From assembly GCA_964560175.1 (NCBI GenBank), contig CAZLKQ010000004.1, forward strand, positions 8,019-32,018: 24,000 bases of DNA, read 5' to 3'. Made by a program: the position numbers and the translations under genes. This document shows, piece by piece, positions 3,024 to 23,903 of this stretch (within the stretch, counting starts at the first letter, position 1; each line of letters begins with the position of its first letter). The notes beneath the pieces are model-generated. The model was given only the letters and a program-made list of their open reading frames with translations, was not told the origin of the DNA and did not search any database. The stretch comes from an uncultured Candidatus Saccharibacteria bacterium. GTDB lineage: Bacteria > Patescibacteriota > Saccharimonadia > Saccharimonadales > CAZLKQ01.

Positions 3024-3308
3024 ATGAGTGATATATCTAATATAGCGACGAAGATTATTGAGGAGCAGGAGGCGATTATTGGGCCGGTGGCTTTGGAGCA
3101 GGCTAGGCAAGTCAGTGGTCTCAAGATCACCTGGGATAAGAACAAGCACGATGTGACCATCGATGGTGATTCATCTGAAGTAGTAAACAATTTGGTCAAG
3201 AAATACCAGGCGCTGTTTGGCCAAACCTCTGTCGAAGTCTGCAAAGACGCTGTGGCTAGCATTCTCAGCAGCCTGCCATCTGAAAAAGTCCCAGCGTTGC
3301 TGAAGTAA
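3024..3308 (+). CDS. small soluble hypothetical protein
   Basis: 94-aa acidic ORF. Its ATG is 1 nt after the upstream TGA (gcgTGAcATG), suggesting translational coupling. No family recognised. Confidence 0.5.
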   Translation: MSDISNIATKIIEEQEAIIGPVALEQARQVSGLKITWDKNKHDVTIDGDSSEVVNNLVKKYQALFGQTSVEVCKDAVASILSSLPSEKVPALLK

Positions 3309-3316
3309 AACTTCAG

Positions 3317-3430
3317 CCGTTATCCGTTAACTATTCACCATTAGCCGTACATTAACCGTTAACCTTTTGCCATGGGAAATGGCAGATGGAAAACGTATGG
3401 AAAATGGAAAATAGACGATGGAAAACGAAT
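3317..3430. repeat. heptad-built imperfect palindrome, copy A (apex CCATGG 3370-3375)
   Basis: Left arm has CCGT/CCAT cores at 3317, 3324, 3338, 3345, 3356 and 3370. Right arm has ATGG cores at 3372, 3379, 3386, 3397, 3404 and 3418. Hand count in ungapped register: 36 Watson-Crick plus 5 G:T of 56 positions. Confidence 0.8.
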
Positions 3431-3438
3431 AAAGCATT

Positions 3439-3444
3439 TATACT
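3439..3444 (+). promoter_or_regulatory. -10 box TATACT, 6 nt upstream of ATG 3451 (leaderless-type promoter)
   Basis: Hexamer read directly. There is no Shine-Dalgarno between it and the start. The same geometry recurs at other genes in the window. Confidence 0.45.
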
Positions 3445-3450
3445 ATCCTT

Positions 3451-4836
3451 ATGCTTCGAACTAGAAGGGTAGGTATAGCTGCCCAAAACACCAACGACAT
3501 CTCTCATATCACCCAGGAGATGTACAAAAAGAACCTCGAGCTCAACGAGCGCAACAAGACATTGTCTCTGCTGCGGCGGATCGATGATATCGTCATCAGT
3601 CCGGAAAATGATACCAGCGATGTCATGAACAGGATCGCTGAGGCTATCATTGAAGGCACAGATTTTAGCAGCGCTTTGATCGGCTTAATCGACAAATCCA
3701 ATGGCACCATCAATTTTTACGGCCGAGCCGGCGACAAAGATGATTTAGGTAAAGTGCCGTCTCGGCCGCTAAGGCTGCTGACCTATGGCAAACTGCATGA
3801 CTGCGCCAAAGAACTCAAGAACACTGAATACAAGAGCCTGTCTGAAATTTTCCCACAAGAGCCTGATCATGTTACTTCGGATGGGGCAGGCACGGTCTTT
3901 TTGATGCCATTGATTGCCCGGCGCCAACCGATCGGCTTATTTATCATCCACAGCCCACAGACTAAAGAGGATCTATCAGATTTCAAAAAAACTTTACTTG
4001 AACGGCTGGTCAATGTCATCGGCATTGCCATCGACAGCAAACAACTCTACGAACAAGTCGTCGAAGCCAGCGCTGAGCTGCGCGTCAAAAATAAAAAACT
4101 CAAAGAACTGGACAAAGCCAAAGACGAATTTATCTCGATGGCCAGCCACCAGCTGCGGACACCACTGACCACAGTTAAAGGCTATATCTCAATGATGCTC
4201 GACGGCGACGCTGGCAAACTCGGCGAGCAGCAACATAACTTGTTGGACCTGGCCTATTTTTCCGCCCAACGGATGGTTTTTTTGATTACTGATCTACTCA
4301 ATGTGTCCAGGATAAATACCGGCAAATTCGTTATCGAATCAGCACCAGTAAATCTGCTCAGCGTTGTGACCTCAGAAATTGCCCAATTGCAGCAAACGGC
4401 CGCAACCCGCAATGTCCAGTTGGTCGCCGAGCTGCCAAAGGAATTCCCGACGGTCTATCTCGATGAGAACAAAACCCGCCAGGTAATGATGAACTTTATC
4501 GACAATGCCCTGTACTACACGCCATCAGGCGGCACGGTGCGGGTCCAGCTGGAACGGACACCTGACGCCATCGAATTCCGGGTGGTCGACAATGGCATCG
4601 GCGTGTCCGAGGCTGACAAGAAGAAACTGTTTGCCAAATTCTACCGAGCCGACAATGCCCGCGAGCAACGGCCTGACGGCACCGGCCTGGGCCTATTTAT
4701 GGCTAAAAAAGTCATCGCCTCGCAAAATGGCACGATCATTTTTGAGAGCCAGCTAGGCAAAGGCTCGACTTTTGGCTTTCGCTTCGCTCTAGCTATCGTC
4801 GGGAAAATGCCACCGAGTAGTGTAAGTAGCCAGTAA
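3451..4836 (+). CDS. cytoplasmic GAF-domain sensor histidine kinase (HisKA + HATPase_c)
   Basis: 461 aa. H-box SHQLRTPLT, N-box NFIDNALYYT, G1 DNGIGV, F-box FAKFYRAD, G2 GTGLGL. The N-terminal ~200 aa is GAF-like and preceded by a coiled-coil-like segment. No TM segment. No response regulator in the window. Confidence 0.9.
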   Translation: MLRTRRVGIAAQNTNDISHITQEMYKKNLELNERNKTLSLLRRIDDIVISPENDTSDVMNRIAEAIIEGTDFSSALIGLIDKSNGTINFYGRAGDKDDLGKVPSRPLRLLTYGKLHDCAKELKNTEYKSLSEIFPQEPDHVTSDGAGTVFLMPLIARRQPIGLFIIHSPQTKEDLSDFKKTLLERLVNVIGIAIDSKQLYEQVVEASAELRVKNKKLKELDKAKDEFISMASHQLRTPLTTVKGYISMMLDGDAGKLGEQQHNLLDLAYFSAQRMVFLITDLLNVSRINTGKFVIESAPVNLLSVVTSEIAQLQQTAATRNVQLVAELPKEFPTVYLDENKTRQVMMNFIDNALYYTPSGGTVRVQLERTPDAIEFRVVDNGIGVSEADKKKLFAKFYRADNAREQRPDGTGLGLFMAKKVIASQNGTIIFESQLGKGSTFGFRFALAIVGKMPPSSVSSQ

Positions 4837-4853
4837 GGTGTAGGAAGTAGGAA
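4817..4853 (+). repeat. (G)TAG heptad array E1 overlapping the histidine-kinase stop codon
   Basis: GTAG at 4817 and 4826, GTAA at 4833 (contains the real stop TAA 4834-4836), then GTAG at 4840 and 4847. The last four are in exact 7-nt phase. Confidence 0.5.
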
Positions 4854-4857
4854 GCTT

Positions 4858-4942: not shown

Positions 4943-6538
4943 TTATTTGAGTAAAGCGCTTTTCAGTGCTCGCTTTGAGCGGAACCAATTTCCGATGGTG
5001 GCGCCCAATGCGCTGGTACCGACGAAGGCACTCATGGCAGCTCCCGGACCAGTTCTTGGCAGGGTGGTCGGAGTCGTAGGAATGCTGACTTCACACAAGT
5101 TTTGGGTTGTGCCTTCCGAAGTAACGATCTTTACGCTGGCTTTTAGATTACCGGCGGCTGGGTAGGTGTGGTTGATCACGTTGGTATCAACAGTTGCAGT
5201 TTGGCCGTCGCTAAAAGTGAAGATGTATTGTTTGGCAGTCACACCTGGGCTGAGCTTTGGAGTAGCGGTAAACTTGTACGACAAGTCGCCTATTTTGCTG
5301 GCCGTCAGGCCGTCGCAAGTAAAGCTGACCGCTTGGTCACAGCCATTACCTGGCTGGTCACCGTTTTTGTCGATGAACACCTTGGCATCATCTGATTTTT
5401 CAGTTACATCCTTGGCTCGCACAAATGCTACGTTCTTGAACTCACATGGTCCTTCTGGATCAATGGTTGTTCGGAAGGTTACAAAGCCGTTGCCATTTGG
5501 AGCGTAGTTGCCGACATTCATGCCGCCGGCGCCTAGAGCAGTATCATTTTGCTTGGTGCCAGGGTTGGCATTGTCCCACCAACGGATGCTGTTTGGAACC
5601 AAATTCAGTCCTGCTGGCATTTGGTCGCGAATCGTGATGTCATTAGCAACGTCTGTACCGCTGTTTTTGTAGTCAATTCTCCAGGTCAGAGTCTCGTCAG
5701 GTGAAGTGGTCAAGTCTTCCTTGAATTCACCCTTCCAGTCTTCGCTGCCGTCACTATTGTTAGAGATGGTAACTTTCTTGTTCAGATCGACATTGGCTGC
5801 TACGACCTTAACCTTGACGTAAACTCGGGTTGCAAACTCGAAACAACCGGGAAATTCACCGCTAGGGTTGATAGTACCATTTTGGTCCTGTCCCAGCTTT
5901 GTACCAGATCCGACAATGTTGTCAGACAGTGTTTGCAAAGTAGTATTTTGCTTGGCAGTCAAAGCCTTAGCCGAGCCTGGAACATATTCTATTCCAAAGA
6001 CCATATTGTCATTCTTTAGTTGGGATTCATCCCAAATCTCTACGGCTTTGTTCTTGCCATCGCTGCCACCAGCTGCCCACAAGTGAGCTTGCAGGTCGTG
6101 GCCGTTAGCGTTGCCATCGTCAAAGTCCAGTCGGACATTGGTATTTAGAGCAACACCGTCGCCGACACCGTTTCCGTCAGTGTCAGTGGTGTTTAATCCA
6201 GGTAGTGCAGTGTTGTGTACATATACACGCACCCAGTATTCTTGGCCAGCTTCTGCTAATTGGTCTTCTTGGTAGACATCATCTACAGGATTGTCATCTA
6301 CAGCTTTGGAAATTCGCACAAAGTTGCGTTCATCACCGTAGCCGGGAGCGTTAACGAAGTTGTTAAACTCGGGTCCGGTAGTGGCACCCTGTTCACCAGG
6401 CCATGTGTAAGTAGGCAGTGGGCTAGCTGAACCGTAAGCAAATACGATTGCTGGCAATCCTAGTACTAATAGGCCGACTAACACAGTTCTTAGTTGCTTG
6501 GAAAGATGCTTGAAATAGTTGGTAATTGATCGTGTCAT
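4943..6538 (-). CDS. sortase-anchored (LPRTG) cell-surface protein with DUF11-like and PKD-like Ig-fold repeats
   Basis: 531 aa. N-terminal signal peptide (LVGLLVLGLPAIVFAYG). The C-terminus is LPRTG (codons 5048-5062), then a hydrophobic stretch, then the basic tail RSKRALK. A DUF11-like segment reads TLTWRIDYKNSGTDVANDITIRDQMPAGL. A PKD-like segment reads YIFTFSDGQTATVDTNVINHTYPAAGN. SD AAGGAG lies 7 nt upstream of the ATG. Confidence 0.85.
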   Translation of the reverse strand: MTRSITNYFKHLSKQLRTVLVGLLVLGLPAIVFAYGSASPLPTYTWPGEQGATTGPEFNNFVNAPGYGDERNFVRISKAVDDNPVDDVYQEDQLAEAGQEYWVRVYVHNTALPGLNTTDTDGNGVGDGVALNTNVRLDFDDGNANGHDLQAHLWAAGGSDGKNKAVEIWDESQLKNDNMVFGIEYVPGSAKALTAKQNTTLQTLSDNIVGSGTKLGQDQNGTINPSGEFPGCFEFATRVYVKVKVVAANVDLNKKVTISNNSDGSEDWKGEFKEDLTTSPDETLTWRIDYKNSGTDVANDITIRDQMPAGLNLVPNSIRWWDNANPGTKQNDTALGAGGMNVGNYAPNGNGFVTFRTTIDPEGPCEFKNVAFVRAKDVTEKSDDAKVFIDKNGDQPGNGCDQAVSFTCDGLTASKIGDLSYKFTATPKLSPGVTAKQYIFTFSDGQTATVDTNVINHTYPAAGNLKASVKIVTSEGTTQNLCEVSIPTTPTTLPRTGPGAAMSAFVGTSALGATIGNWFRSKRALKSALLK

Positions 6539-6550
6539 CTTGATTCTCCT

Positions 6551-7840
6551 TTAGACTTTCTTGCCATTGTTCTTACGGATTCTGTTCTCATACTTTTTCC
6601 TTGCTCCGGCAAGCAAAGTTGCTCCGGCCAAGGCTATACCAAATATCGGATCGAAGGACTGTTGTTCAGCAGGAGCCTCAGCGGCTGCGGCAGTCGCACA
6701 ATATTCAGCAGTACAGTCTGTCTGGGGAGCTGTAGTGGATGTCGAGGAAGTGCCTTGAGCAGTAGTTTGAGTTGTACTTGGATTCGCTTCTTTCTCAGTA
6801 GTAGATGTGGTTGGGTTAGGAGGCGTATTAGTAGCAGGCGGAGCCGGTACAGTAGTAGTAATTTCGCCTGGAGGATTGGTACCAGGAGTACGGGTCGTAG
6901 TGGTCTCTTCTGGAGCCGGTACAGTAGTAGTAATTTCGCCTGGAGGATTGGTACCAGGAGTACGGGTCGTACTGGTGCTTTCTTCAGGAATAGTTGTGGT
7001 TCCTTCTGGAACAGTAGTTTCAGTAGGCTGGTCGGGCCGGTTAGGAGTTTGCATATTGTCACAAGCCCATTTTGCCATCAGGACAGCTGGTCCAGTAGTG
7101 CCATCAGCAAATTCCACTTGAACAGTCACGAATTCTGAAGCTGGGATTACCGTATTTGGCTTACCGTTTTTATAGGTGACTACAGCATTGCCATTGTCAT
7201 CGAAGCTGACGGTGAACTCTTTGTCATCTGAGTGAAGCACGATTACTGGTTCGCCGACTGGCAAAGGTAGCTCATTGGCATCGGTGTCTTCGATTACCCA
7301 ATCGCCAGGATTCTCTTTTTTAATCCGAGGACATGCCCAGTTATTCGGATCAACTATCTCGGTAGTTTTAGCGACTGAGCCTATATCAACCCATCCTTGC
7401 ATTATTTCGGCATTGGTAGCTCCAATCTTGTCTAGATTGGCTAGTACATTTAATTGACCAGGGGCATTTTCACCAATCCAAATAACACGTTCGGTGGCGA
7501 GATCTGCATTGGCTGGGTTAGTAAATAATTCCGTACGAAGTTCTTGGTAATCCGCTTCTGGATCAGTTGAGCTGGCATAAGCAGCTATTGCTTCTGCGCT
7601 AGTTTTGAATATACCACAGCCACCGGCATCAAATGAAAGCGGGGCCTCTTGGTCGCCATTACCAGCGGGGTCTCCTTGGATATCACGTTTAGAATCAGGA
7701 GAACCAGTGGATCGGCTAACCAGAAAAACGCCACCACCAACTATTGCAGCGCCAACACCACTAGAGACAACAATCCTACTCTTATCTAAAGAGTCTGGTG
7801 TGTCATGATAAAAATTTGAAACACCTTCTCGTAAACTCAC
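6551..7840 (-). CDS. Thr/Pro-rich surface protein with an N-terminal membrane anchor/signal and a non-LPXTG C-terminal hydrophobic-basic tail
   Basis: 429 aa with a GTG start (rc of CAC 7838-7840) and SD GGGAG 8-9 nt upstream. An N-terminal TM segment (VGAAIVGGGVFLV) precedes a globular region with two WAC motifs. A 24-aa tandem repeat is TTRTPGTNPPGEITTTVPAP... x2. The C-terminus is FDPIFGIALAGATLLAGARKKYENRIRKNNGKKV. Confidence 0.75.
   Translation of the reverse strand: MSLREGVSNFYHDTPDSLDKSRIVVSSGVGAAIVGGGVFLVSRSTGSPDSKRDIQGDPAGNGDQEAPLSFDAGGCGIFKTSAEAIAAYASSTDPEADYQELRTELFTNPANADLATERVIWIGENAPGQLNVLANLDKIGATNAEIMQGWVDIGSVAKTTEIVDPNNWACPRIKKENPGDWVIEDTDANELPLPVGEPVIVLHSDDKEFTVSFDDNGNAVVTYKNGKPNTVIPASEFVTVQVEFADGTTGPAVLMAKWACDNMQTPNRPDQPTETTVPEGTTTIPEESTSTTRTPGTNPPGEITTTVPAPEETTTTRTPGTNPPGEITTTVPAPPATNTPPNPTTSTTEKEANPSTTQTTAQGTSSTSTTAPQTDCTAEYCATAAAAEAPAEQQSFDPIFGIALAGATLLAGARKKYENRIRKNNGKKV
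6840..6983. repeat. 72-bp tandem duplication (2 units) inside the Thr/Pro-rich surface protein gene
   Basis: 6840-6899 is identical to 6912-6971 (60/60 by eye). The remaining 12 nt of each unit match 8/12. The period of 72 nt equals 24 codons, so the repeat is in frame. Confidence 0.9.
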
Positions 7841-7900: not shown

Positions 7901-8003
7901 GTACTTTTGTTAATAATAGTTACTTTATGCAACTAGTTTGTGTCTTTACATCTGATTGTGCAGCAATATTTTAACGTTTGCAAGCATGTGCATTATCTAT
8001 AAT

Positions 8004-8160
8004 CACGACTCTTCCACTTTTCCATCGCCCCAATTCGTACCTGAACGGCTGCAAACTTTTACTCCTCATTCAACGTAACTATGGTTATGCCTCACTCGGA
8101 TTAAAAGTATTCGCTCGTTCATGTACACCCTGTCATCAATGGCTAAGTGGAAGAGGCGTG
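8004..8160. repeat. long-range inverted repeat upstream of umuD (possible degenerate member of the heptad-palindrome family)
   Basis: CACGACTCTTCCACTT (8004-8019) matches the reverse complement of AAGTGGAAGAGGCGTG (8145-8160) at 15/16. The arm-proximal sequences (CCAC/CCAT/CCCA on the left, ATGG/GTGG/GAGG on the right) resemble the family units, but with irregular 6-8 nt spacing. Confidence 0.45.
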
Positions 8161-8166
8161 ATGGAC

Positions 8167-8178: not shown

Positions 8179-8580
8179 ATGAGTAAATTGTCTAAATTGG
8201 TTTTGACACCGGTCCACGCCGGCTTTCCCAATCCAGCGGCTGATGCCAGCGATACCCCGCTCGATCTAAATCGCTTAGTCGTCAGCCATCCAGCCGCGAC
8301 TTTTTATATGCGGGTCGAAGGCCGGTCAATGGAAGGAGCCGGCATACTGGACGGAGACCTGGTGGCGATCGACAAATCACTCGAACCGGGTCACGGCGAT
8401 ATCGTGGTGGCATATATAGACAGCGCTTTTACGCTCAAAAGGTTTGAGAAAAGAAACGGCAAAGCCCTACTGGTAGCTGAAAATCCCGAGTTTGAACCGA
8501 TCGAACCTCAAGGCGAAGATGATGCTATTTGGGGCGTAGTTATCGCCGTCATCCGCCAACTCCGCACCACTCAGCCCTAA
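8179..8580 (+). CDS. umuD: UmuD-like S24 self-cleaving peptidase (translesion polymerase accessory subunit)
   Basis: 133 aa with no N-terminal HTH domain. It has an AGFPNPA cleavage-site region (Ala-Gly), the nucleophile Ser in VEGRSM, GDLVAID, and the general-base Lys in FTLKRF. A umuC homologue lies downstream. Confidence 0.85.
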   Translation: MSKLSKLVLTPVHAGFPNPAADASDTPLDLNRLVVSHPAATFYMRVEGRSMEGAGILDGDLVAIDKSLEPGHGDIVVAYIDSAFTLKRFEKRNGKALLVAENPEFEPIEPQGEDDAIWGVVIAVIRQLRTTQP

Positions 8581-8585
8581 GGCAT

Positions 8586-8703
8586 CGTTCATTTGCCATT
8601 AGCCATTTACCGTTTTCCGTGCGTTTTCCGTTATCCATTCTCCATGGCAAACGGCTTATGGATAATGTGTGGTGAATGGTAAACGGTGAACGGACAATGA
8701 ATT
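8586..8703. repeat. heptad-built imperfect palindrome, copy B (apex CCATGG 8642-8647)
   Basis: C(A/G)T(T/G) cores sit at 8590, 8597, 8604, 8611, 8618, 8622, 8629, 8636 and 8643. The mirrored AATGG/AACGG units are in the right arm. Hand count in ungapped register: 35 Watson-Crick plus 8 G:T of 55 positions. Confidence 0.85.
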
Positions 8704-8728
8704 TAGCTACAAGGACGACCCTAATGTG

Positions 8729-8734
8729 TATAAT
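8729..8734 (+). promoter_or_regulatory. -10 box TATAAT, 6 nt upstream of ATG 8741 (leaderless-type)
   Basis: Consensus hexamer read directly. It argues that the transposase starts at ATG 8741 (MPSRF...) rather than at the ORF-track ATG 8726, which lies just upstream of the hexamer. Confidence 0.5.
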
Positions 8735-8740
8735 ACGCTT

Positions 8741-9355
8741 ATGCCTAGTCGCTTTGTGGTCAAGCACTACTCTCCGAAGTCTTATTATCACATCTATAGC
8801 CGTGGGCTGGGCGGCGGGGATCTGTTTCGAGATGAGACGGATTTTGTGGCTCTGACCGACATCTTGAAACGCTATTTGGGCCGCAAGCAGCTGCGTGACC
8901 CTTCTCGGCGGGCCTACAAGCACTATCGGGACCAGATCGATCTGGTGGCTTACTGTCTGATGTCGAACCATTTACATCTGTTGCTCTACCAAAAAGATGA
9001 AAAAGCCACTATCGACTTTATGCGCTCCCTTCTGACTAGTTACGCTATGTACTTCAATCTGCGCCACAAGCACCGGGGAAATATCTTCCACGGGCGTTAC
9101 CGGGCTTCCAATATCAAAAATAAGGACGATCTGACCGCTGTTAGCCGCTACATCCATCTGACGCCGATCGATTATGGAGCTTATCCACACTCCTCCTATT
9201 CGATCTTCACTGGAGCCCAAAAGGCCGATTGGCTGGCTCCACAACACGTTCTAAAGGTTTTCAAGGACGGACCTAGTTATAGCAGCTATGTAGGTGATTA
9301 CTCGGATTACAAGCGCTCAATCGACGGACTCAAACCAAATCTAGCTAATCGCTAG
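8741..9355 (+). CDS. HUH/Y1 single-strand DNA transposase of the IS200-like (Y1_Tnp) superfamily, RayT/TnpA-REP-like
   Basis: 204 aa (209 aa if started at 8726). Motifs: YHIYSRG, HUH in CLMSNHLHLLL, and the catalytic Tyr in VSRYIHLTPIDYG. The length and C-terminal extension fit REP-associated tyrosine transposases better than ~150-aa IS200 TnpA. No tnpB is present. Confidence 0.8.
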   Translation: MPSRFVVKHYSPKSYYHIYSRGLGGGDLFRDETDFVALTDILKRYLGRKQLRDPSRRAYKHYRDQIDLVAYCLMSNHLHLLLYQKDEKATIDFMRSLLTSYAMYFNLRHKHRGNIFHGRYRASNIKNKDDLTAVSRYIHLTPIDYGAYPHSSYSIFTGAQKADWLAPQHVLKVFKDGPSYSSYVGDYSDYKRSIDGLKPNLANR

Positions 9356-9395
9356 CTAGAAATTAGTAGTTAGGAATTAGAAACTAGTAAAATAA
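9353..9395 (+). repeat. TAG heptad array E3 starting at the transposase stop codon
   Basis: TAG at 9353 (the real stop), then at 9357, 9364, 9371, 9378 and 9385, the last five in exact 7-nt phase. Extra TAG at 9367 and TAA at 9388. Confidence 0.45.
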
Positions 9396-9417
9396 TATTG
9401 GTAGAAGGAGGTCTGGA

Positions 9418-10674
9418 ATGTATGCGGCGGTAGATTGTAATAGCTTTTTTGTCTCTTGTGAGCGGGTTTTCCGGCCTGATCTAGAAGGCCGCCCGGTAGT
9501 CGTATTGTCCAACAATGACGGCTGCGTGGTAGCCAGATCACCAGAGGCCAAAGCCCTGAGTATTCCCATGGGCGCGCCATTTTTCAAATACCGGGATATT
9601 CTAGAAAGCGCTAAAACAGAGGTGTTTTCAGCCAATTTTAGCCTGTATGGGGATATTTCCCAACGGATCATGTCGATTATGTCAGCTACTGGCGCGGCTA
9701 TCGAGCCATATTCGGTTGACGAGGCGTTTATCAGATTGAAGGATCTACATATTGATAATAAAACAGATTGGGCGCTCGATCTGCGTCAAAAAATTCTAAG
9801 CTGGACCGGCGTGCCGGTGTCGATCGGTCTCGGACCCAGCAAGACTCTAGCCAAAGCCGGCACTCAGTTGGCCAAACGGCTACCAGCCAGCGGCGGTGTA
9901 GTCGATCTATCCATGTCAAGGACAGTCCTTGACAGTTTGCCGGTGGAGGACGTCTGGGGTTTCGGCCGGCGATTAAGTCCTAGATTACATTCTATAGGTG
10001 TGCAAACGGCGGCTGATGCCACTAAGCTATCTGATGCCTGGATGCGGAGTTTGGCTGGCATCAGTGGTGAGCGGGTCATCCGGGAGCTCAGGGGCGAGGA
10101 TATTTTCGGTTGGAATGTAACTTACAATGAACCGCCTCAGCAGACTCTAGCGGCCACCCGCAGTTTCGGCCAGCCGATCACCGATGTAAACGTCGTCAAG
10201 GCTGCTGTGGCCAATTTCGTGGTCCGGGCGTCTTATAGATTGCGCCACCACAAAAAGCTCGCCAGAAGCCTCCAAGTGTTTCTGCAGGCCGGTCCCCACA
10301 AGAGGGCCAGATACTTTTCCGCCAAAGGCCAGCTACCCTATTCCACAGCTGATACTGGGATCATCATGGAATTTGCCCAAAACTTAACAGATCAGGCATT
10401 GAAAAAAGGCCTGGATTACCGAAGGGCTGGCCTAGTTTTAACAGATCTGGTAGGACTTGAGGCCCAACAGTTGTCACTACTACACGAAAACAGCGAAGAA
10501 GATTTCGTGAAAAGGGAAAACCTCATGAACGCCCTGGATGGTATCAGGGATAAATTCGGTCCGGCTAGTTTAGGTTTTGCGGTTGAAGACAAGATCGCCT
10601 GGCACTCCAAACGCAGCCAAGTTAGCCCTGCCTACACCACCAGATGGTCCGACTTACCAGTCCTAAAAGTTTAG
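9418..10674 (+). CDS. umuC: Y-family translesion DNA polymerase, UmuC type (Pol V catalytic subunit)
   Basis: 418 aa. The N-terminus [41 protein letters not shown] is UmuC-like, and SVDEAF supplies the catalytic acidic residues. SD AAGGAGG lies upstream. A possible own -10 (TAATAT) is at 9393-9398. Confidence 0.9.
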
Positions 10675-10685
10675 AACTGGTAAAT

Positions 10686-10748
10686 CCATTTTCCATTTAC
10701 AATTTTCCATTTTCCGTACGTTTTCCGGTATCCATTCCCCCATTAGCC
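10686..10748 (+). repeat. heptad repeat family, solo arm copy C (no CCATGG apex or right arm)
   Basis: 10707-10740 matches copy B 8610-8643 at 30/34 positions. It also matches the reverse complement of the copy A right arm at 27/34. Confidence 0.75.
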
Positions 10749-10790
10749 CAAAAACAACCTCAAAAACAACTATTACAACATATACTTCCT

Positions 10791-10815
10791 GTTTCCAGGT
10801 ACCGGCCCTGGAAAC
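10791..10815. other. 9-bp stem hairpin (GTTTCCAGG taccggc CCTGGAAAC) between convergent genes
   Basis: Perfect inverted repeat read directly. There is no U-tract on either strand, so a terminator function is uncertain. Confidence 0.35.
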
Positions 10816-10854
10816 AAATAGAAATTCTAAATTCTGAAATCAAATATCTACAAT

Positions 10855-11364
10855 TTAGGATTTGAAGTAGGAGCGAACTTGGAACAGGACGTACAGGCCG
10901 ATGAGCGAGCTAATGGCTTGAGTAACGATCCCAAATAAAGCGGCATTGGCTATGGCGTTTAAAACACCGAAAGCGAAGTTAAAAAGGGCCATATAGTAGC
11001 TGAGATTCCAACCGGCTTTTTTCAAAGCCTTGAGCTTTGGCACGGCCATTGCTCCGACTACAACTTCAGCGCCCAAAACTAGTAGTGCCAACCAAGCAAA
11101 GAGGAGATAGGAACCGCCGTAAGTAGCTGGAATTGCGGCTACCGTGCTAACAATACCCAGGACGCCTAGTAACGCAAAGAAAGCCAGGCCGCCCAAGATG
11201 ACAAATAGCAATTCAAAGATCCAAGCATAGGTGGCGATCCACTTGCGAGCATTTTCCGGCAACTGAAATGGAGCATTTTTGACTAACATGTCATTGAGCG
11301 TCCCCTCGAGCCCCTTGACACTAGCTTTGACAGTTTCAGTACCTACAGATTTATCATCGGCCAT
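10855..11364 (-). CDS. small integral membrane protein (about 4 TM), unknown function
   Basis: The ORF track gives 10855-11379. The second in-frame ATG (rc of 11362-11364, MADDKS...) has SD GGAGG 8 nt upstream, so the shorter 169-aa form is preferred. The C-terminal two thirds is hydrophobic. Confidence 0.6.
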   Translation of the reverse strand: MADDKSVGTETVKASVKGLEGTLNDMLVKNAPFQLPENARKWIATYAWIFELLFVILGGLAFFALLGVLGIVSTVAAIPATYGGSYLLFAWLALLVLGAEVVVGAMAVPKLKALKKAGWNLSYYMALFNFAFGVLNAIANAALFGIVTQAISSLIGLYVLFQVRSYFKS

Positions 11365-11391
11365 TGTCTGACCCTCCATTTAATTACCCTC

Positions 11392-11420
11392 TTTATACAC
11401 ACTATCCACCGATTGAGCAA
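11392..11420 (-). promoter_or_regulatory. candidate promoter TTGCTC-N17-TATAAA for the membrane-protein gene
   Basis: On the minus strand, the -35 is the rc of 11415-11420 and the -10 is the rc of 11392-11397, with a 17-nt spacer. Confidence 0.4.
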
Positions 11421-11441
11421 CAGATATACACATGGTAAAAT
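11413..11441 (+). promoter_or_regulatory. candidate promoter TTGAGC-N17-TAAAAT for tRNA-Glu
   Basis: -35 at 11413-11418 and -10 at 11436-11441, with a 17-nt spacer. The tRNA 5' end lies 10 nt downstream of the -10. Confidence 0.5.
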
Positions 11442-11451
11442 TGCCAAACAA

Positions 11452-11526
11452 GGTCCCATCGTCTAATGGTTAGGACACCAGGTTTTCATCCTGGCAATAG
11501 GAGTTCGATTCTCCTTGGGATCACCA
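11452..11526 (+). tRNA. tRNA-Glu (anticodon UUC), CCA encoded
   Basis: Cloverleaf folded by hand. Acceptor GGTCCCA/TGGGATC, D-stem GTCT/GGAC, anticodon stem CCAGG/CCTGG with loop TTTTCAT (anticodon TTC), T-stem AGGAG/CTCCT with loop TTCGATT, and a 3' ACCA. Confidence 0.93.
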
Positions 11527-11552
11527 CGTCAAAGCTCGACTTAAACCACCTG

Positions 11553-11581
11553 TTGTATCTGATCAATCAGATTGTTACAGT
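11553..11581 (+). promoter_or_regulatory. candidate promoter TTGTAT-N17-TACAGT with a 7-2-7 palindrome (ATCTGATcaATCAGAT, 11557-11572) in the spacer
   Basis: Read directly. It is positioned upstream of the small basic ORF and pgk. Both hexamers are weak. Confidence 0.3.
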
Positions 11582-22390: not shown

Positions 22391-23872
22391 GTGGTAAGTA
22401 TTACCGATACTGCTAAAAAGCCATTTTTTATTACATGTGCCATCCCGTATACCAATGCGCCGGCGCATATTGGCCATGCATTGGAATTTATCCAGACTGA
22501 CTGCTTGGCTCGCTACCAGCGCGCGCAGGGCTATGACGTGCTGCTCCAACACGGCGCCGATGAGCACGGCAGCAAAAACTACCAAAAAGCCCTAGAGCTA
22601 AACAAGACACCACAAGCTTTTGTCGATGAAATTACCGAAAAATTTATGAGCGTTCATAAAATTTTAAACATCAGCTACGACCGTTTCATCCGCACGTCTA
22701 GCGCCGAGCACAAAAAGGGCGCCACGGCCTTTTGGGAAGTCCTGGTGGCAGCCGGCGATATCTACAAAAGCCGCTATGAAGGCCTGTACTGCGTCGGCTG
22801 CGAGGCTTTCGTGACCGAAGCCCAAGCCAACGAAAATGGCGGCAGCTGCCCGATTCACGAACGGCCTTACGAAAAACTATCAGAAGAAAATTATTTTTTT
22901 CGTTTATCCAAATACACCGATCAGATCAAACAGGCCATCCAGACCGACCGTCTGAGGATCGTGCCCGAAACTCGCAAGCATGAGATATTGTCGTTGATCG
23001 AAGACGGCTTGCAAGATCTGTCGGCTTCTCGGCCAAAAGACAAACTCCCCTGGGGCGTAGGAGTTCCAGGCGACGAGACTCAAGTCATGTACGTCTGGTT
23101 TGAAGCCCTGATGAATTATCTGACGGTGCTGGGCTATCCGGGAGGCGACTTCGCCCATTATTGGCCGGCCCAAGTCCAAGTCATCGGTAAAGACATTCTC
23201 AGATTTCACGCCGCCATCTGGCCGGCCATGCTGCTGTCAGCCAAGCTGGAACTGCCGGCCACGCTTTATGTCCATGGTTTTGTCAACGTCGACGGCAAGA
23301 AAATGAGCAAAACTGCCGGTAACGGCGTCGATCCGTTCGAAGTCGTGAGCCAGTACGGCGTCGATGCTTTCCGCTACTATCTGCTGCGGCACATTCCATC
23401 CGGTGAAGACGGTGATTTTACCTGGGAAAAATTCGAACGGGCCTACAACGGCGAACTAGCCAACGATCTGGGAAACTTAGTGCTGCGGGTGGCCAATATG
23501 ATCCTGCAGTACCAAAAAGGCGCCACCGGCGAGGCCCCCGCCCACGAGCATGACGAAGGCGCTTATCACCGGGCTTTTAGTGAGATGCGCTTTGACAAGG
23601 CATTAGGTGCCGTTTGGCAGGAAATCCAGAGTCTAAATGAGTACATTGAGCAGGAAAAGCCTTGGATCTTGGCCAAAGAAGACCCCGAGCATTTAGGTGA
23701 GGTTTTGGCTTACCTGACCGGTTCTCTGTTGCAGATTACCGATCTGTTAGTACCTTTTTTGCCCGATACCAGCGATAAAATCCGCAAAATTTTCGGCTCT
23801 GGAGTCATACCCGACAAACTTGAGCCGCTCTTCCCCAAAATCCACAACTACACCGAAACCAGTAGCCAGTAG
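22391..23872 (+). CDS. metG: methionyl-tRNA synthetase (short form, no C-terminal tRNA-binding domain)
   Basis: 493 aa. HIGH motif PAHIGHA, KMSKT motif, and a CVGCEAF...CPIHE knuckle. The GTG start at 22391 is uncertain, as I see no SD or -10 upstream. Confidence 0.93.
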   Translation: MVSITDTAKKPFFITCAIPYTNAPAHIGHALEFIQTDCLARYQRAQGYDVLLQHGADEHGSKNYQKALELNKTPQAFVDEITEKFMSVHKILNISYDRFIRTSSAEHKKGATAFWEVLVAAGDIYKSRYEGLYCVGCEAFVTEAQANENGGSCPIHERPYEKLSEENYFFRLSKYTDQIKQAIQTDRLRIVPETRKHEILSLIEDGLQDLSASRPKDKLPWGVGVPGDETQVMYVWFEALMNYLTVLGYPGGDFAHYWPAQVQVIGKDILRFHAAIWPAMLLSAKLELPATLYVHGFVNVDGKKMSKTAGNGVDPFEVVSQYGVDAFRYYLLRHIPSGEDGDFTWEKFERAYNGELANDLGNLVLRVANMILQYQKGATGEAPAHEHDEGAYHRAFSEMRFDKALGAVWQEIQSLNEYIEQEKPWILAKEDPEHLGEVLAYLTGSLLQITDLLVPFLPDTSDKIRKIFGSGVIPDKLEPLFPKIHNYTETSSQ

Positions 23873-23903
23873 CCAGTAGTGAGTATTCGGTATTGGGTAT
23901 GTT
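23862..23903 (+). repeat. GTAG/GTAT heptad array E2 overlapping the metG stop codon
   Basis: Six units in exact 7-nt phase: GTAGCCA GTAGCCA GTAGTGA GTATTCG GTATTGG GTATGTT. The real stop TAG (23870-23872) belongs to unit 2. Confidence 0.6.

Follow-up and report, generated by a model that had tools for sequence, protein, structure and literature searches.

The window analysed here is a 24,000-nucleotide (nt) stretch of contig CAZLKQ010000004.1 (positions 8,019 to 32,018) from an uncultured Candidatus Saccharibacteria bacterium. It contains a umuDC cassette for polymerase V (Pol V), in which a gene for a UmuD-type S24 autoprotease adjoins one for a UmuC-type Y-family polymerase, and the spacer between them houses a gene for an HUH/Y1 nuclease (Y1), the subject of this study. 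The spacer (8581-9417, 837 nt) holds, in order, a long palindrome made of heptads (copy B), the Y1 gene and a TAG-rich heptad stretch, and a solo palindrome arm (copy C) stands 3′ of umuC (Table 1). In profile searches the product of 8179-8580 scored 133 bits against NF007621, the model for the autoproteolytic subunit of Pol V (cut-off 110); the best NCBIfam match of the 9418-10674 product was the UmuC model PRK03609, at 337 bits and under its cut-off of 431. All features listed in an initial annotation of the locus, made from the sequence alone, were located again, at the same coordinates or a few bases off. The 837-nt spacer with its intact 204-amino-acid (aa) Y1 open reading frame (ORF), HUH motif and tyrosine was borne out by the ORF, the motifs and the Pfam score; palindrome B, its relatives, solo arm C and the TAG stretch are all present, the last as a weak array (Tandem Repeats Finder (TRF) score 34); and both the Shine-Dalgarno sequence AAGGAGG of umuC and a possible -10 hexamer ahead of it (TAATAT, 9393-9398) were found in the sequence.

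Table 1. Features of the umuDC locus and of related repeats in the window.
Feature	Position	Strand	Remarks
Heptad palindrome, copy A	3318..3440		far from Y1 genes
umuD-like S24 autoprotease gene, 133 aa	8179..8580	+	Pfam Peptidase_S24, 92.7 bits; NCBIfam NF007621
Heptad palindrome, copy B	8579..8697		about 120 nt; CCRTTNN heptad arms, CCATGG centre; 5′ of Y1
Decayed remnant of cognate hairpin, CAAGGACGACCCTAATG	8710..8726		about 15 positions match the L091 hairpin, with one gap
-10 box TATAAT	8729..8734	+	6 nt 5′ of ATG at 8741; no Shine-Dalgarno sequence
HUH/Y1 nuclease gene, 204 aa	8741..9355	+	ATG at 8741, stop at 9353-9355; Pfam Y1_Tnp, AlphaFold, Foldseek
8-bp hairpin TCTAGCTA-ATCGC-TAGCTAGA	9340..9360		spans Y1 stop; AT-rich; not of the family core type
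TAG-rich heptad stretch	9353..9387	+	weak tandem array; TRF period 7, 4.4 copies, 75% matches, score 34
Shine-Dalgarno sequence of umuC, AAGGAGG	9405..9411	+	from sequence
umuC-like Y-family polymerase gene, 418 aa	9418..10674	+	Pfam IMS, IMS_C, DUF4113, IMS_HHH
Perfect palindrome with 10-bp arms, TGTCAAGGAC-A-GTCCTTGACA	9914..9934		in umuC coding sequence; family-type core AAGG...CCTT
13-pair hairpin	10654..10683		spans umuC stop, directly 5′ of solo heptad arm
Solo left heptad arm, copy C	10685..10740 (about)	+	83% identical to left arm of B; aligns in register
Hairpin TGTTTCCAGG-TACCGGC-CCTGGAAACA	10790..10816		between convergent umuC and the 10855-11379 gene
tRNA gene	11452..11523		Rfam, 63.5 bits; between the 10855-11379 gene and pgk
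Heptad palindrome, copy D	16736..16832		far from Y1 genes

The Y1 protein matches Pfam PF01797 (Y1_Tnp) at 34.3 bits (cut-off 23). Its HUH motif, NHLHLL, occupies residues 76-81 (HUH 77-79) and the catalytic tyrosine is Tyr137, in SRYIHLTP; H77, H79 and Y137, which mark the HUH/Y1 superfamily, are invariant among 33 aligned sequences. All 14 invariant residues of that alignment are kept in the window protein, and its 204-codon ORF is undisrupted. Among 5.8 billion proteins searched, 228 relatives were recovered, of which nearly all have about 204 aa and those with names come mostly from Saccharibacteria or Patescibacteria; the best non-self match was only 47% identical. By full-length homology (E = 1e-53) the protein belongs to a Patescibacteria Y1 family with the consensus NHxHLL, G-P-x-F-Q-S-R-Y and S-R-Y-I-H-L-N-P. 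At the corresponding positions the window protein reads NHLH, FH (not FQ) and YIHLTP (not YIHLNP), so that the tyrosine motif retains its proline, carries threonine where at least 90% of the 33 homologues in the alignment have asparagine, and has no glutamine. Some weaker matches combine Y1_Tnp with Bac_DnaA_C, an architecture described for subclass 2.1 of the TnpA_Y1 proteins.

The sole NCBIfam match of the protein was NF047646, REP_Tyr_transpos, at 39.3 bits and under the 80-bit cut-off of this model for REP-associated tyrosine transposases (RAYTs; REP, repetitive extragenic palindrome). Because sequence matches in the PDB were weak (ISDra2 TnpA, E = 1e-3; 4er8, E = 0.7), folds were compared. 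The AlphaFold model, built from 33 sequences, has a mean predicted local distance difference test score (pLDDT) of 91, and its top PDB match by Foldseek is 4er8, E. coli TnpA_REP bound to a REP hairpin (E = 3e-7, 172 columns), with the ISDra2 and IS608 TnpA structures ranking behind. At the C terminus about 60 aa form a helical extension, in which neither Pfam nor the model shows a helix-turn-helix (HTH).

According to Quentin 2018 (PMC6006769), Y-x3-NP defines class 2 of these proteins, which is RAYT-like, and Y-x3-Q defines the IS200-type transposases. Like the IS200, IS608 and ISDra2 TnpA proteins (subclass 1.1), the window protein has the HUH/Y1 fold, and in its relatives the gene and a hairpin on either side, the two sometimes in direct orientation, make up a unit of about 0.8 kb. 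The protein differs from them, and from what defines IS200/IS605 members, in a tyrosine motif that lacks the glutamine, in its length (204 against about 150 aa), in having no tnpB nearby, in the divergence of its relatives' paralogues, with no near-identical copies, and in long synteny. Judged by its sequence and fold, the protein is a predicted RAYT-like, class-2 HUH/Y1 single-stranded DNA (ssDNA) endonuclease and not an ordinary IS200/IS605 TnpA, in agreement with the initial annotation; the motif type of its family, its length, the 4er8 match and the diverged paralogues of its relatives are in line with this. Fold and family membership are established by these comparisons, and catalytic activity would follow by analogy with the characterised enzymes.

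Within class 2, the nearest group by motifs would be subclass 2.1, which corresponds to Group 1 RAYTs (Bertels 2017) and to TIRYT or 'TIRtron' (Di Nocera 2013). For this subclass, Table 1 of Quentin 2018 (PMC6006769) lists NH[YF]H or NHVH, FQ and Y[IV]HLNP, and the Patescibacteria family likewise has an NHxH HuH motif, FQ instead of W[EQ] and Y[IV]HLNP. The family also resembles subclass 2.1 in a C-terminal extension that takes the protein beyond the catalytic core, and in its low copy number and diverged paralogues. The window protein itself differs from the subclass in YIHLTP and FH and in a modelled helical tail of about 60 aa where the subclass often has a DnaA_C-like HTH. E. coli TnpA_REP (RAYT, YafM; 4er8) is the best structural match of the model and shares the NP-type tyrosine motif with the family, although sequence identity is 14% and the REP_Tyr_transpos score reaches 39 bits against a cut-off of 80.

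The surroundings of the gene were compared across loci of about 90 homologues from Saccharibacteria and other Patescibacteria (about 1.29 Mb; single loci carry L numbers such as L001); in the genome-collection scan for Y1 homologues, the best match was 46% identical to the window protein. In the loci fetched, a palindrome particular to the genome stands on both sides of most homologue genes, no more than about 100 nt away. Hairpins were counted on both sides of 43 genes, on one side of 32 and on neither side of 16, and hairpin density was 4.5 per kb in the gene flanks versus 1.3 per kb elsewhere. These family hairpins are 20-30 nt long, have the core A-GG...CC-T, with five nucleotides between GG and CC (A-GG-N5-CC-T), and lie tight around the gene, giving a module of hairpin, -10 box, gene and hairpin that measures about 0.75-0.8 kb; some form inverted doublets resembling REPINs. 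For example, the gene is bracketed by a shared 21-24-nt sequence, CTAAGGGTCCGTCCTCTAGC, in L001 and L004 and by the hairpin GCTCAAGGTCCGTCCTTGAGC in L003, and four copies of GCGCAAGGGTTCGTCCTTTGCGC surround it in L008. Among 27 hairpins that were aligned, none departs from the two inner G-C pairs and 24 keep the adjoining A-T pair. Changes in both partners were seen at eight outer pairs, with 84 compensatory cells versus 27 in shuffles; none of 500 shuffles reached 84, and the covariation score was 0.63 versus at most 0.16 for slid partners.

Where two paralogues share a locus among the relatives (eight pairs, 39-65% identity), each has a different hairpin, and no near-identical Y1 copies were seen in these relatives. 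A second Y1 paralogue in L008 (10932-11552, 50% identical), about 4 kb from a ruvC-Y1-ruvA module and beside a PIF1-type helicase gene, has its own hairpin, ATAAGGTGAGACCTTAT. Copies of the cognate hairpin also lie inside the Y1 coding sequence in L029 (10150, 10417), L033 (10449), L034 (8613), L048 (1333-1366) and L076 (1910, 2205), and further copies, rare overall outside the flanks, are found 1-12 kb from the gene in L034, L035 and L076. In L077 a frameshifted Y1 paralogue (10881-11559) has hairpins 96-100% identical to those of the intact L022 gene (9800-10850); both loci belong to one metagenome-assembled genome (MAG; JACPKG01), and their Y1 proteins are only about 55% identical, which suggests that hairpins can be renewed in trans.

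Taken together, these features of the Patescibacteria family resemble the protein-repeat pairing of the REPtron, in which a RAYT gene has a cognate palindrome on both sides. As in the E. coli REPtron, the relatives' genes are bracketed by cognate hairpins, often inverted doublets, with a type of their own for each paralogue. In contrast to the E. coli case, dispersal of the hairpins in the sampled loci is sparse at most, the hairpins of the window have decayed, and a GT[AG]G foot is lacking: inspection of the flanks found no conserved one, the conserved part being the inner A-GG...CC-T. The copies within Y1 coding sequences of several Patescibacteria homologues recall subclass 2.4, in which REPs are carried in-frame inside the tnpA_REP gene (Quentin 2018, PMC6006769); the motifs WQ and YIxNNP and the GTAG-footed REPs of that subclass are not those of this family. 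Published members of subclass 2.1 have either no REP-like flanks or terminal inverted repeats of the type GGGGWSAS, unlike the A-GG...CC-T hairpins described here, and since the published account of that subclass reports no REP-like flanks, a hairpin-bracketed arrangement of the subclass-2.1 kind appears to be undescribed.

The position of the gene between umuD and umuC is shared with another lineage. The best matches of the window UmuC are 57%, 52% and 50% identical, with no close relative in the database. The 52% match (55% by global alignment) lies on a 650-kb contig, L091, where the order umuD-Y1-umuC-hypothetical gene-pgk-tim-uvrD is that of the window, with Y1 inverted onto the opposite strand. 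The L091 gene is bracketed by TGCATCAAGGTCGGACC[T/C]TGATGCA, and both hairpins are intact. The initial annotation had read the gap as an insertion splitting a cassette whose genes are normally adjacent. Neither part held: L091 has Y1 at the same place, and in two Y1-free relatives of this clade (UmuC 46-47% identical) the umuD-umuC spacers still measure 253 and 172 nt, with no hairpin seen. By these comparisons Y1 did not arrive recently: its location is conserved, and the gene has long resided between umuD and umuC.

Divergence between the two loci amounts to 46% identity for Y1, 65% for UmuD, 55% for UmuC, 62% for Pgk and 64% for Tim. In a group of genomes with the module between ruvA and ruvC, Y1 identity (59-69%) is comparable to that of RuvA and RuvC (49-72%), and the modules of this group are inherited vertically. 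The L091 protein is 56-62% identical to the main group and the window protein at most 54%, its branch being the longest in the group; because the L091 protein is the nearer of the two to the main group, the acceleration is placed on the window's branch. The simplest history would start from a single ancestral insertion, followed by a flip at the hairpins and then by hairpin decay in the lineage of the window.

Hairpin decay is visible in the window itself. No k-mer of 9 nt or more is common to the two flanks of Y1, and a cognate palindrome on both sides, present in most relatives and expected of a REPtron, is missing. What can be recognised is the remnant CAAGGACGACCCTAATG, which ends 3 nt 5′ of the -10 box and, by reading, agrees on the same strand with the right-hand L091 hairpin CAAGGTCGGACCCTGATG at about 15 positions with one gap. 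It does not fold (-1.4 kcal/mol, z = -0.67), and the AAGG-N3-7-CC[CT]T pattern that it fits occurs just four times in the 24 kb. The likeness to L091 matters because hairpins are otherwise genome-specific. No internal hairpin was found in the window's own Y1 gene, and the cognate hairpins of the window have largely decayed. In a metagenome scan with the L091 hairpin core TCARGGTCSGACCYTGA, a Y1 gene lay within 400 nt in 6 of 80 loci among the matches listed, which did not include the contig of L091 itself; the remaining loci are probably mostly chance 17-mers and have no bearing on dispersal.

Could the shared location instead reflect two arrivals? A rarely transposing, IS200-like unit of 0.8 kb with a site preference might have entered the window and L091 independently. 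Unit size, hairpins at both ends and the opposite orientations would fit, as would the Y1 tree, which does not firmly unite the two proteins; the hairpins and the decayed extra copy in one MAG also indicate some mobility. Set against this are the NP-type tyrosine motif in place of Y-x3-Q, the paralogues at 39-65% identity without near-identical copies, the way Y1 divergence follows that of the neighbours within syntenic groups, and the remnant in the window that resembles the L091 hairpin despite the genome specificity of such hairpins. Family members also occur at many unrelated sites, so that no site preference is evident. We therefore consider an active element of this kind improbable.

The explanation that we regard as likely is that Y1 is a resident RAYT-like gene, old in the umuD-umuC spacer, whose own hairpins have decayed, and that the heptad palindromes are separate from it. 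By analogy with IS608, ISDra2 TnpA and TnpA_REP, the nuclease would bind hairpins in ssDNA and would cut and rejoin the DNA at their foot through a 5′-phosphotyrosine intermediate. Modules would hold one chromosomal site for long periods, diverging along with their neighbours. The module would already have occupied the umuD-umuC spacer when the lineages of the window and of L091 parted, and would since have flipped in one of the two; in the window it would probably now be immobile, and its protein is the fastest-evolving of its group.

Several observations weigh against this explanation. A neighbour-joining tree did not robustly pair the window and L091 proteins, which leaves some probability to independent insertions. 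A perfect family-type palindrome in umuC hints that the protein may keep a local substrate, which weakens a picture of decay and immobility. The likeness of palindrome arms B and C, and their bracketing of Y1 and umuC, are left without an account. The view of copy number in the host genome, which bears on the counts of gene, hairpin and heptad palindrome alike, is that of the 24-kb window. The nearness to subclass 2.1 is a motif-based assignment only, and Quentin 2018 (PMC6006769) describes that subclass as lacking REP-like flanks, so that the hairpins here differ. Finally, the hairpins used for covariation were selected as palindromes, and the percentage of paired positions is biased as a result.

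Decay of the hairpins raises the question of whether the gene is itself a relic, no longer functional in this lineage and with an ORF that merely happens to be undisrupted still. The window protein departs from the family at 8 of 55 highly conserved positions, among them N141T in the signature motif and H133A beside the catalytic tyrosine, and the change of Q to H in the FQ motif and the longest branch in the group point the same way. Yet most of the eight deviations are conservative, the ORF is intact with all 14 invariant residues, TATAAT stands at the exact spacing of the family, and a perfect family-type palindrome lies nearby in umuC. On this balance loss of function seems unlikely.

The palindrome in umuC (9914-9934) folds as DNA at -8.3 kcal/mol (z = -5.1), sites of its type are expected by chance about 0.03 times per 24 kb (a rough estimate), and its core is that of a hairpin flanking the gene in L052. 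Insertion of this palindrome into umuC was considered and rejected, the window UmuC being shorter at this point than that of L091. A second hairpin, at 10790-10816, folds at -9.3 kcal/mol (z = -4.7) and is either a family-like hairpin or a terminator. It is possible, if doubtful, that the Patescibacteria have a distinct, so far undescribed RAYT-like class in which the nuclease co-evolves with a private hairpin and hairpins are still copied in trans, both between genes and in-frame within them; the umuC palindrome would then be the surviving substrate in the window. A variant of this idea takes the 120-nt heptad palindromes as a new REPIN type derived from the system. If such a class exists, an HUH nuclease could nick or rearrange the gene of the error-prone polymerase, umuC, when it is single-stranded.

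The heptad palindromes were compared among themselves. All seven arms in the window align in register, including an 11-mer irregularity common to the heptad series, and the element of about 120 nt occurs in 3.5 copies per 24 kb, each in the spacer directly after the stop codon of a plus-strand gene. The copies are therefore homologous members of one dispersed element of about 120 nt and not loose runs of heptads. Copy B is an imperfect long hairpin (z = -2.4), and solo arm C has no fold of its own. The left arm of B and arm C are 83% identical, against 67-69% for either compared with A or D, and form direct repeats bracketing Y1 and umuC.

In the initial annotation, these palindromes and perhaps the TAG heptads were the REPs of the locus, with Y1 as the RAYT that mobilises them genome-wide. 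Their dispersal between genes, their hairpin form and number, the contact of copy B with the Y1 promoter and the position of the most similar pair around Y1 and umuC would all suit a REPtron, as would the GTAG heptads at three gene ends, GT[AG]G being the canonical REP foot (Quentin 2018, PMC6006769). Subclass 2.1 of the same study, by contrast, has other motifs in place of the residues by which TnpA_REP recognises GTAG, a comparison that applies to the subclass and not to this family. No heptad palindromes were found in the homologue loci (about 1.29 Mb), where the family's cognate repeats are of a different type, the short A-GG...CC-T hairpins. The two flanks of Y1 have no repeat in common, copies A and D lie far from Y1 genes, and L091 carries the gene at the same site without heptad palindromes, an outcome that the annotation had itself named as speaking against its reading. 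A REPtron of heptad palindromes is accordingly quite improbable; the palindromes make up a dispersed repeat family of their own in this genome, and their tie to the protein is one of proximity only.

Other heptad repeats and hairpins lie at gene ends. Runs of (G)TAG heptads at 4816-4854, 9353-9387 and 23859-23879 (TRF scores 30-42; for example CCAGTAG three times and GTAGGAA twice) overlap or follow the stops of three plus-strand genes, and their 7-nt period places TAG in all three frames. Hairpins over stop codons directly 5′ of heptad arms, at 3300-3316 (CTGAAGT-AAA-ACTTCAG) and 10654-10683, may be a preferred target or a junction structure of the heptad element. Arrays of CAATTNN heptads are present in other Patescibacteria (L046, 16795-16822; L057, 20117-20151; L063, 2859-2886; L080, 7694-7714), and intergenic repeats of 7-nt period may be common in this group.

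Transcription of Y1 probably starts at a leaderless promoter, as the initial annotation had it. Of 29 close homologues, 22 have a -10-like hexamer ahead of the ATG at a distance of 4-9 nt (mostly 6) and no Shine-Dalgarno sequence, and this conserved spacing supports the leaderless reading; a consensus promoter scan missed the -10 box of Y1, which has no -35 match. In L091, the start called for umuC (MQGGYNRIMYAAV..., 5001-5030) is probably a miscall. A TATAAT stands 6 nt ahead of the homologous start (MYAAVDC, about 5025), which would make umuC leaderless there and put one hairpin between the divergent leaderless starts of Y1 and umuC. The window has Y1 and umuC on the same strand, separated by 62 nt; the sole hairpin between them is the weak, AT-rich one over the Y1 stop, and no convincing terminator was found in this interval. 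From this layout umuC is probably co-transcribed with Y1. The suggestion that umuD and umuC may have become transcriptionally uncoupled lacks support, co-transcription of umuC from the Y1 promoter being at least as likely. The consequence for the window would be modest: umuDC has long been tolerant of the intervening gene, and umuC may run from the Y1 promoter.

The promoter also bears on a regulatory explanation, in which the palindromes are operators or terminators and Y1 is a domesticated DNA-binding regulator of its neighbours, often repair genes. The upstream palindrome does occupy the -35 position of the leaderless promoter, one palindrome in L091 lies between the divergent starts of Y1 and umuC, and three syntenic groups involve repair genes (ruvA|ruvC, recA and umuD|umuC). 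In the other Saccharibacteria loci that were annotated, the neighbours are unrelated (YchF, ABC transporter, PheT, ParA, LepA, TatC, LDH, Mur ligase and others) and the repair link is insignificant by a rough estimate; invariance of the HUH residues and tyrosine across the family argues for catalysis, and hairpin copies in coding sequences and at far sites fit mobility better than operators. We consider this explanation very improbable. A link to DNA repair as a general rule was dropped, as 30 further neighbours were unrelated housekeeping genes.

RAYTs, the textbook example of transposase domestication in bacteria, have a function that is still unsolved, and nearly all of those characterised come from Proteobacteria and Cyanobacteria. 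The family described here is widespread in the ultra-small genomes of Patescibacteria and is of more interest than the single locus. Long persistence of the module under strong genome reduction argues for a host-level function, and with its invariant core, variable stems and paralogue-specific hairpins the family offers a simple system for protein-hairpin specificity. The earlier view that such systems are mainly proteobacterial was right only in part: class-2 TnpA_Y1 proteins are already recorded across many phyla (Quentin 2018, PMC6006769; Bertels 2017), but Patescibacteria are not in the taxon lists of these two classifications, and no description of a hairpin-bracketed RAYT-like family in this group was found in the literature.

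Elsewhere in the window, an Rfam search returned nothing but one tRNA, and PADLOC matched none of its defence systems. Just 5′ of the umuD start, a 24-nt inverted repeat (8002-8025 / 8139-8162, 88% complementary) surrounds 113 nt. Rfam has no match for this repeat, which may be a long 5′-leader hairpin or else a small element of the inverted-repeat type. A 72-nt tandem duplication at 6817-6960 (about 1.9 copies; 98% matches by TRF, 85% between copies in the repeat search) sits in the minus-strand gene 6551-7840, whose product is rich in Thr and Pro and apparently surface-exposed.

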